A stretch of DNA of 63,538 nt, filler included, from Stramenopiles sp. TOSAG23-6 (GCA_900128565.1; 25 parts of 25 records of this genome joined end to end with filler, not necessarily neighbours in it), one strand, 5' to 3'. Counted from the first letter of the whole stretch, positions 27,935 through 28,200 are shown. Program-made: numbers and translations. The notes: generated by a model from the sequence alone, not told the origin.

Positions 27935-28200
27935 CTGCATTATGAAAAAATATTTTTTAAATTTTATTTTGTTGTTAGGTACGAAATTTACTATGAAAAC
28001 AAAATGACATTCACGNNNNNNNNNNNNNNNNNNNNNNNNNNNNNNNNNNNNNNNNNNNNTTAATTAATTAANNNNNNNNNNNNNNNNNNNNNNNNNNNNN
28101 NNNNNNNNNNNNNNNCCAAATTTTTTTTTTCCAAAAAATATTTCGTACGAAATTTCGTACCTAACAAAAGAAAAAATTTAAATATTTTTTCATAATATAT

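Follow-up and report, generated by a model that had tools for sequence, protein, structure and literature searches.

The introns that most resemble those considered here belong to several described types. Fungal introner-like elements are near-identical introns of ~100 nt with predicted secondary structure and GT-AG ends. The yeast-type branch site, TACTAAC, is paired by the U2 sequence GUAGUA, and U12-type introns carry the 5′ consensus [AG]TATCCTT together with a branch motif located ~10–20 nt from the 3′ end. As presented in the available portion of one account, the introners of Micromonas pusilla and Aureococcus anophagefferens always have direct repeats, constant-length terminal inverted repeats, and canonical splice motifs, and in Amoebophrya the introners end non-canonically and carry direct repeats of 3–5 nt as well as terminal inverted repeats of 8–20 nt (PMC7789003). 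The accessible part of another report describes hemistasiid diplonemid introns as having G+C-rich, variable ends and a rare YTRAY motif (2.4–6.8% in two hemistasiids; PMC12621601).

The DNA analyzed here, hereafter the window, is a stretch of 63,538 nt from Stramenopiles sp. TOSAG23-6 (GCA_900128565.1). It contains a perfect palindrome fused to CTAAC, a combination that would be the central module of high-copy, introner-like introns of ~100 nt and of spliceosomal type, dispersed across the genes of an AT-rich marine protist. Among the papers listed by literature searches, none describes this AG-less intron type in its main text, and none of those on uncultured marine stramenopiles mentions the term "introner". 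A full-text search for the letters of the motif returned unrelated primers alone, as judged by titles.

Composition of the window and location of the palindrome

The window comprises 25 contigs of 2427–2463 bases each, which are sorted by size and glued together with artificial linkers of the form N44-TTAATTAATTAA-N44 (for example, at 2464–2563 and 28016–28115). Because the window consists of joined separate contigs, any feature that spans a linker is not real. The 16-bp palindrome GTACGAAATTTCGTAC, read directly from the sequence, is located at 28145–28160 and is immediately followed by CTAAC at 28161–28165 (plus strand), a putative branch-point motif. The first-pass annotation was therefore correct in describing a perfect palindrome with CTAAC directly after it. 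This site is found 29 nt from the start of contig 28116–30565, such that just the 3′ part of the intron is present (28116–28200, plus strand), and the family consensus predicts a 3′ end at approximately 28200–28202. The exon downstream of this intron piece has a Pfam match to Dna2.

Contig 28116–30565 is identical to its own reverse complement at 2450 of 2450 positions. Thus, the core at 30521–30536 is the same sequence as that at 28145–28160 and not a second copy, and the intron piece at 30481–30565 (minus strand) is a mirror of 28116–28200. The contig is therefore an inverted-duplication chimera that arose during amplification or assembly, as single-cell DNA amplification can give. The observation at 28145 is real, yet it is placed at the end of an artefactual contig. 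A motif at 27979 that looks like a partner of the palindrome sits on a different contig across the linker. The core in question, ATAGTAAATTTCGTACCTAAC at 27974–27994 (minus strand), was recovered by the oriented motif search and belongs to a separate family copy at the end of the neighboring contig. Motif copies are often found 0–40 bases from contig ends, as is expected when an assembly breaks within a repeat.

The window also carries telomere-like tracts. Allowing at most one mismatch, there are 27 matches to (CCCTAA)2 or longer, including those at 749, 953, 21922, 28613, 28964, 37647, 38085, 44005–44037, 48803, 52846, 53675, 54195, 57045, and 58036–58060. In all tracts that visual inspection could assign, the C-rich strand coincides with the sense strand of the gene at that place. 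Some tracts are in-frame in ORFs, where they encode NPNP, and others are located just after the 5′ end of an intron. The sequence CCTAAC is the branch motif of the family and is also a permutation of the telomere unit.

Architecture and members of the intron family

At no more than three mismatches, the 16-mer has 52 matches in the window versus 0.38 expected, and the largest number in any shuffle is two. When copies are oriented by the YTAAC that follows, 55 are found at no more than five mismatches to the 21-mer, of which 52 are unique after the removal of mirrors, and there are four additional degenerate ones. Most family copies were detected by means of this core. The family layout is exon-AT/GTAYGTTTTAT ... 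T-run-[G/A]TACGAAATTT[C/T]GTAC-CTAAC ... TTTYCAMAATACAT/exon, where slashes mark the borders. In all copies, the 5′ GTAYGTTTTAT is followed by a variable left arm and by a T-run whose last base is C; next come the core and CTAAC, and then an A/T-rich right arm that leads into TTTYCAMAATAC-AT. The A/T-rich stretch after CTAAC is ~30–50 nt long and lacks AG in its final part. Alignment of the introns groups the left arms into subfamilies, and whether core position 1 is G or A tracks the subfamily, as judged by eye.

Thirty copies were defined as complete, with lengths of 87–160 nt (median 104); the window contains 29, and the other was recovered from a metagenome contig. Seven of the copies are located on the plus strand of contig 35762–38208. 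Three of these have been verified with RNA: 36637–36740 (core GTACGAAATTTTGTAC), 36837–36935 (core ATACGAAATTTCGTAC), and 37339–37453, which lacks the 5′ half of the palindrome (TTTGAAAATTTCGTACCTAAC) and ends in TT. The others are 35887–35991, which has the degenerate core ATAGAAAATTTCACGCCTAAC, was recognized by its ends and frames, and is present in independent seawater DNA; 36391–36502, the sole intron whose flanking frames misfit GT..AT in the frame test, by one base; 37018–37106, from alignment and frame test; and 37899–38004, in which AT replaces the 5′ GT and the flanking frames are consistent. Alignment and frame test also identify plus-strand copies at 18362–18468, 19526–19612, 52230–52331, 52521–52612, 53149–53286 (138 nt), and 28775–28873, the last of which is within the self-complementary contig and has its mirror at 29808–29906. 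Additional plus-strand copies were found by alignment at 6899–7058 (160 nt long, where ACCTAAC occurs a second time, 43 nt before the 3′ end) and by end-anchored search at 48273–48366, which ends at a contig end, and at 48975–49074, which has the degenerate 5′ half TATAAAAATTTTGTACCTAAC and is backed by the frame test. An intron with a 5′ GA is present at 19087–19186 with consistent flanking frames, and a family-like intron without YTAAC was found by its ends at 60720–60823.

On the minus strand, alignment and frame test place introns at 41902–42006 (ending in GT), 23503–23604 (whose 3′ arm is shortened and which has CCTAACCCTA close to the 5′ end), 22294–22397 (with a perfect palindrome), and 22096–22208. 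Three introns interrupt an AMP-binding gene, at 12347–12447 and 11482–11584 (alignment, frame test, and Pfam) and at 10794–10893 (alignment and frame test). The intron at 10366–10472 was assigned by the frame test. End-anchored search yielded 54404–54520, which has a degenerate 5′ half and a TT end after a TT-ending exon, and 23024–23139, which likewise has a degenerate 5′ half. An intron at 43625–43721 resides in an RPA1-like gene, and its position is supported by alignment, frame test, and homologs: the junction ..AP/WYPSCPEEG corresponds to ..GPWYPACPEEG in a homolog. The best two hits to this RPA1-like exon have 57% and 52% identity, and the named hits at ~33–38% come from oomycetes, diatoms, and Blastocystis, but also from animals and fungi.

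Host genes include the Dna2-like, AMP-binding, and RPA1-like genes, and near-identical copies occupy unrelated genes, as is characteristic of a mobile family. A Pfam search with the exon fragment 35927–36388 returned no families; the gene there is one that we take to be retinol-saturase-like. A metagenome scan with a 20-mer found one locus, contig L001, which carries the additional complete copy at 362–465 (minus strand) with a perfect palindrome and ATG at both borders. The exons of L001 look richer in G+C than the window, and its source may be a related organism. A scan of prokaryote genomes (596 Gb) with an 18-mer gave four loci, which were taken as chance given our own estimate that tens would be expected, and a scan of viral contigs for the motif gave none.

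Several related arrangements are found outside the complete introns. At 57783–58017 (minus strand), a tandem array of core plus spacer has an 82-nt period, 2.8 copies, 94% matches, and six cores, and it lies within one intron that begins with GTATGTTTTTTTT and CCCTAA repeats. Degenerate cores at 14820–14835 and 52005–52020, each with an adjacent AAATTCGAAATTCG block (14800–14850 and 51985–52030), are antisense in plus-strand ORFs of two different genes, and both read SQIRNSL. A weaker QQIRNSFG is present ~40 codons upstream of SQIRNSL in the second of these genes. These two cores are possibly exonized antisense insertions. At 11255–11360, three tandem AGGTTTAGGGTT motifs with identical 15-nt flanks are found on the strand opposite the sense strand of the AMP-binding gene.

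Splicing evidence and intron borders

Splicing was evaluated on contig 35762–38208 by using poly(A) metatranscriptome contigs from two studies. This contig was found in small DNA runs and in seawater metagenomes and metatranscriptomes representing seven studies. For intron 36637–36740, an RNA contig joins 36632 to 36737 (X7 record 19), where a likely synonymous T/C difference accounts for the one-base offset at the junction. For intron 36837–36935, an RNA contig joins 36834 to 36934 (X8 record 25), and the ATG present at both ends permits GT..AT. For intron 37339–37453, which has TTG repeated at both ends, RNA contigs of both studies join 37336 to 37452 (X7 record 21 and X8 record 28). Exact removal from RNA has therefore been observed for three of the 29 introns in the window, all on this one contig. 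Intron 35887–35991 is retained in DNA, where a contig of an independent seawater run reads through it.

The three-base ATG and TTG border repeats in two of the verified introns mean that the RNA alone allows four registers, which for 37339–37453 are TT..AC, TG..CT, GT..TT, and TA..TG. Other introns constrain this choice. The ends of 10366–10472 repeat AT alone, which excludes the TA..TG register, and 23503–23604 permits rightward shifts alone. The reading frame at 10366–10472 presumably follows that of an adenylation-domain motif. By our own reading, the single register common to the introns at 10366, 23503, and 37339 would begin with GT.

With these borders, 5′ ends are GT in 28 of 30 introns, GA in one, and AT in one, with the consensus GTAYGTTTTAT. 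The 3′ ends are AT in 27, TT in two, GT in one, and AG in none; the last base is T in all 30, the penultimate base is A in 27, and the final ~10 bases are conserved. The longest ORFs flanking GT..NT borders share a frame in 24 of 26 usable introns versus approximately one-third by chance; this count was 16 of 23 with provisional borders, before five of the borders were moved to match the family consensus. The two exceptions are 36391–36502, which is off by one, and 10366–10472, for which the consistent frame is the second longest. The absence of a 3′ AG, which the first-pass annotation had noted, holds for every complete copy, and three such introns are cut from poly(A) RNA at GT...(A/T)T. Among the hallmarks of U2-type introns, the 5′ GT, a branch consensus before a pyrimidine tract, and removal from RNA are present, and the 3′ AG is absent.

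Two other copies on the minus strand, at 27940–27975 (..CATAATGCAG) and 57760–57790 (..CATTCAACAAG), may have an AG end instead of AT. Farther along contig 35762–38208, one gene gives way, across GTAGGTTAACCCTAACCC and long T and A runs (37640–37770), to a helicase-like ORF unrelated to it, and RNA contigs of three runs end at 37639–37645. This change represents either a chimeric join or the start of an intron at 37640.

Branch motif and choice of the 3′ end

The sequence YTAAC is present in 29 of the 30 introns, and the last occurrence is located 32–55 nt upstream of the 3′ end and is followed by T-runs. This is the placement expected of a branch site, and CTAAC is accordingly treated here as a putative one. 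An Rfam scan of the whole window at gathering score gave no matches, and hence no U2 in the window. Assignment to the U12 type was rejected based on the 5′ GTAYGT and on the distance of the putative branch motif from the 3′ end.

A model in which the 3′ cut is made at a fixed distance from the branch motif was likewise rejected, given the 32–55 nt spread. An AG is found 4–19 nt past the branch motif in nine of 29 introns, and it is skipped in both RNA-verified introns that have one. From 20 nt past the branch motif to the end of the intron, there is no AG at all versus 7.5 expected, and none of 5000 shuffles is as low, although independence is overstated in this statistic because the copies are related. 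This pattern suggests that an AG in the terminal stretch, at least 20 nt past the branch motif, would be used.

Variation and conservation of the core

The first-pass annotation had described a perfect palindrome, with common variants that retain pairing through G-U. Perfect palindromes make up just four of the 52 unique copies. The commonest forms are GTACGAAATTTTGTAC (nine copies), ATACGAAATTTCGTAC (six), and ATACGAAATTTTGTAC (five). The first and third of these are the variants that had been named, and the C12→T change indeed keeps a G-U pair. The same cannot be said of position 1, where the commonest change, G→A, is found in 27 of 52 copies and converts the closing pair 1–16 into an A-C mismatch. 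Pair 5–12 is G-U in 23 copies and G-C in 16, and pair 4–13 is unpaired in 14. Among products of CpG decay, C12→T is present in 30 copies versus five for T4, six for A5, and eight for A13, and this excess of a change that keeps G-U is what a hairpin model predicts.

In an alignment of 24 introns, whose members were picked via the core itself, the mismatch rate is 0.017 for CTAAC, 0.047 for the 3′ half of the palindrome, and 0.12 for the 5′ half, versus 0.27–0.31 for the arms. Elsewhere in the intron, rates are 0.08 for the T-run just upstream of the core and 0.13 for the splice-site blocks. The palindrome block with its branch motif is thus the best-conserved part of the intron, as had been proposed, and the adjoining T-runs differ in length between copies in the manner of the slipping homopolymers described earlier.

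The 3′ half and CTAAC are still conserved in a set of 28 introns that were picked by their ends alone. In this set, 28 mismatches fall at positions 2–8 versus 12 at positions 9–11 plus 13–16, a comparison of seven positions per half with position 12 left out, and the 5′ half decays approximately twice as fast as the 3′ half. Four of the end-anchored introns retain a TTTYGTAYCTAAC-like 3′ half next to an unrecognizable 5′ half. Since the copies are related, their conservation partly mirrors the youth of the family. Constraint on the 3′ half plus CCTAAC nevertheless appears stronger than elsewhere, which fits an extended branch-point or factor-binding site.

Tests of RNA hairpin formation

An RNA hairpin that presents the branch adenosine had been put forward in the first-pass annotation, with covariation over all copies as the means of checking it. 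This analysis was run over 53 aligned cores (48 distinct rows). Paired cells amount to 75.0%; shuffles average 74.8%, and 228 of 500 reach the observed value; double-sided changes are found at one pair versus 1.9 in shuffles, and the covariation score is 0.145 versus 0.134. There is no compensatory excess. The annotation had named two results that would count against its proposal, namely the absence of covariation and substitution rates equal to those of the rest of the intron. The first was obtained and the second was not, with rates in the core below those of the arms.

The sole consensus structure given by RNAalifold for 24 full introns is a 5-bp hairpin of −0.72 kcal/mol with a covariation term of 0.01, and the hairpin has a pairing probability of 0.5–1.0 in eight of the 24. 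When 16 introns were folded singly, z-scores ranged from +0.66 to −2.77 (mostly 0 to −1.8), and minimum-energy structures differed by copy. The faster decay of the 5′ half is contrary to what a hairpin predicts. In addition, intron 37339–37453 has TTTGAAAATTTCGTACCTAAC in place of a palindrome with a 5′ half, and has a TT end, yet it is exactly joined in RNA contigs of two studies. The hairpin as originally proposed is thus not borne out, and it does not seem to be needed. RNA contigs give junctions and not splicing efficiency, and therefore leave room for a helper role.

Two other helices are possible. One subfamily permits pairing of GUACGUUUUAUAUGAA, the 5′ splice-site region, with UUCAUACGAAAUUUCGUAC at a probability of 0.76–0.92. 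A second helix, between GAAAUUU and an AAAUUUY located after CTAAC, would loop out the branch motif and has at least six of seven pairs in 27 of 50 copies versus ~8 when shuffled. This second helix was rejected as a selected structure, given that the copies owe the excess to the family consensus rather than to independent events. Each of the two helices is weak, is rich in A-U pairs, and competes with the palindrome hairpin, and the core hardly varies, which makes covariation uninformative for the two of them. A foldback or long terminal inverted repeat was also rejected, as comparison of the left arm with the reverse complement of the right arm, core excluded, gave a mean z of 0.15 over 24 introns. 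The terminal inverted repeat is limited to the four nucleotides GTAY/RTAC, and end-to-end pairing probability is low in most copies.

Interpretation and alternative explanations

The explanation toward which we lean, by a little more than even chances, is that an introner-like family has an extended branch-point module under selection, formed by the 3′ half of the palindrome plus CCTAAC, and that the palindromic symmetry is a relic of the family's founder. Each copy would bring a 5′ splice site resembling that of yeast (GTAYGTTTTAT), a T-run with the module [G/A]TACGAAATTT[C/T]GTAC-CTAAC behind it, and a 3′ end made of TTTYCAMAATAC plus AT. Selection would keep TTTYGTACCTAAC, the 3′ half with CCTAAC, as an extended region for recognition by U2 or by branch-point-binding factors. 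The 5′ half, which is the source of the palindromy, would have been inherited from the founder copy and would now be decaying, and the hairpin would be dispensable both for splicing and for use of a non-AG 3′ end. The 3′ cut would be set by the conserved CAMAATACAT end in its AG-free context. The family presumably spread as a mobile element, in which case the symmetry might be a legacy of the founder or of mobilization. In short, the symmetry is probably history, and the 3′ half is probably the part that matters.

The observations that bear on this explanation can also be read in other ways. The presence of near-identical copies, with subfamilies, in unrelated genes would also be expected if the palindrome were a dyad-symmetric DNA site, bound or cleaved by the machinery that copies the intron, that is intact in source copies and decays once a copy has settled. 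Contigs break within copies, a single seawater DNA run has 7501 records that align to intron segments (2281 of them fit two places), GTACG is found at the 5′ end and again in the core, and the 5′ half is decaying in individual copies, all of which agree with such a site, as does the short inverted match between the termini, GTAY...RTAC. In 23 of 30 introns, the final dinucleotide is identical to that of the preceding exon, and both TT-ending introns follow TT-ending exons, of which there are four among 30. However, 19.2 such border repeats are expected under independence, so that the borders give just a weak sign of a 2-bp target duplication. Long terminal inverted repeats are absent, no transposase, autonomous element, or empty site was seen, and a symmetric DNA site does not predict that the 3′ half should be slower to decay than the 5′ half. 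We regard a DNA-level role as doubtful. Still less probable is a composite in which a self-propagating intron carries its own 5′ site, branch module, and 3′ motif, the spliceosome accepts U in place of the last G, the cut is set by the terminal motif together with two duplicated target bases, and the core doubles as a branch platform in RNA and as the DNA site of a mobilizing enzyme.

A role in RNA pairing, whether as a hairpin or as a rival of the two alternative helices, could aid splicing by positioning the branch adenosine or the 5′ splice site for an AG-less end. It draws on the hairpin being the sole consensus structure and well paired in a third of the introns folded, on the G-U retained at pair 5–12, on the looping helix, and on the subfamily in which the 5′ splice-site region pairs with the core. 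It is nonetheless quite improbable, given the lack of covariation, the closing pair broken in more than half of the copies, the marginal consensus energy, the unremarkable z-scores with preferred structures that vary among copies, the exact splicing of an intron without the 5′ half, and the consensus-inherited origin of the looping-helix excess. Least likely in our estimation is that the palindrome has no function, having arisen by chance in a repetitive founder rich in CGAAATTT/GTAC, and seems conserved only through the youth of the family and the adjoining branch site. In keeping with such an origin, TTTCGTAC is directly repeated in the core, AATTTCGAATTT blocks flank the core in some copies, the core is capable of tandem expansion, and the mismatch rate of the 5′ half (0.12–0.14) is close to that of the splice-site blocks and not lower. 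However, the 5′ half has changed less than the arms, the T-run immediately before it is very well preserved, and the bias toward T12 is not accounted for.

Annotation programs built around GT-AG would overlook these introns, and many gene models of uncultured marine protists would be broken as a result. Should reads from the organism itself confirm the pattern, an entire intron family would be spliced with an invariant U as the final base (30 of 30 copies). Its dozens of natural variants would then make the choice of a 3′ end without AG, and the signals borne by a mobile intron, directly testable.

Comparison with known systems

The family shares features with several described systems. As in Micromonas and Aureococcus introners, many near-identical short introns are found in a marine protist, in genes unrelated to one another; the exon/intron borders are bridged by a short direct repeat, and the element supplies one splice site. 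In contrast to those introners, the 3′ ends here are AT, TT, or GT and never AG, the terminal inverted match is 4 nt alone, and the inverted repeat that is conserved lies inside the intron, joined to the branch motif. The yeast branch site offers another parallel, in that TACCTAAC equals TACTAAC with one extra C and its location 32–55 nt from the 3′ end, together with a T-run, is in keeping with a U2-type intron, but conservation in the family extends further upstream (AAATTTYGTAC). Fungal introner-like elements are also near-identical introns of ~100 nt, but they are GT-AG introns, and folding in the present family is no more stable than that of shuffles in most copies.

The branch motif CCTAAC resembles the CCTTAAC-like motif of U12-type introns, but the 5′ GTAYGT differs from [AG]TATCCTT, and the branch motif is 32–55 nt rather than ~10–20 nt from the 3′ end. 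The portion available of a report on U12-type introns with unusual 3′ ends indicates that non-AG 3′ ends are tolerated there as well (PMC1557818). According to the accessible parts of reports on hemistasiid diplonemids and Euglena (PMC12621601, PMC12501133), non-GT-AG introns are likewise removed from mRNA, and base pairing has been proposed to help define their ends. The present family differs from hemistasiid introns in having GT in 28 of 30 copies, YTAAC in 29 of 30, and low end-to-end pairing in most copies, and an assignment to the non-conventional introns of diplonemids or euglenids was rejected on end composition.

Amoebophrya introners, as far as the available portion of their description extends, share repeated introns, non-canonical ends, border repeats that blur the exact cut, palindromic motifs, and a marine protist host. 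However, both of their ends are variable and are joined by inverted repeats, whereas the present family has a constant GTAYGT, CTAAC, and a central palindrome. Thus, relative to the canonical and Amoebophrya introners as those available accounts describe them, this family is set apart by its constant 5′ site and branch motif, its invariant 3′ T, and its central palindrome.
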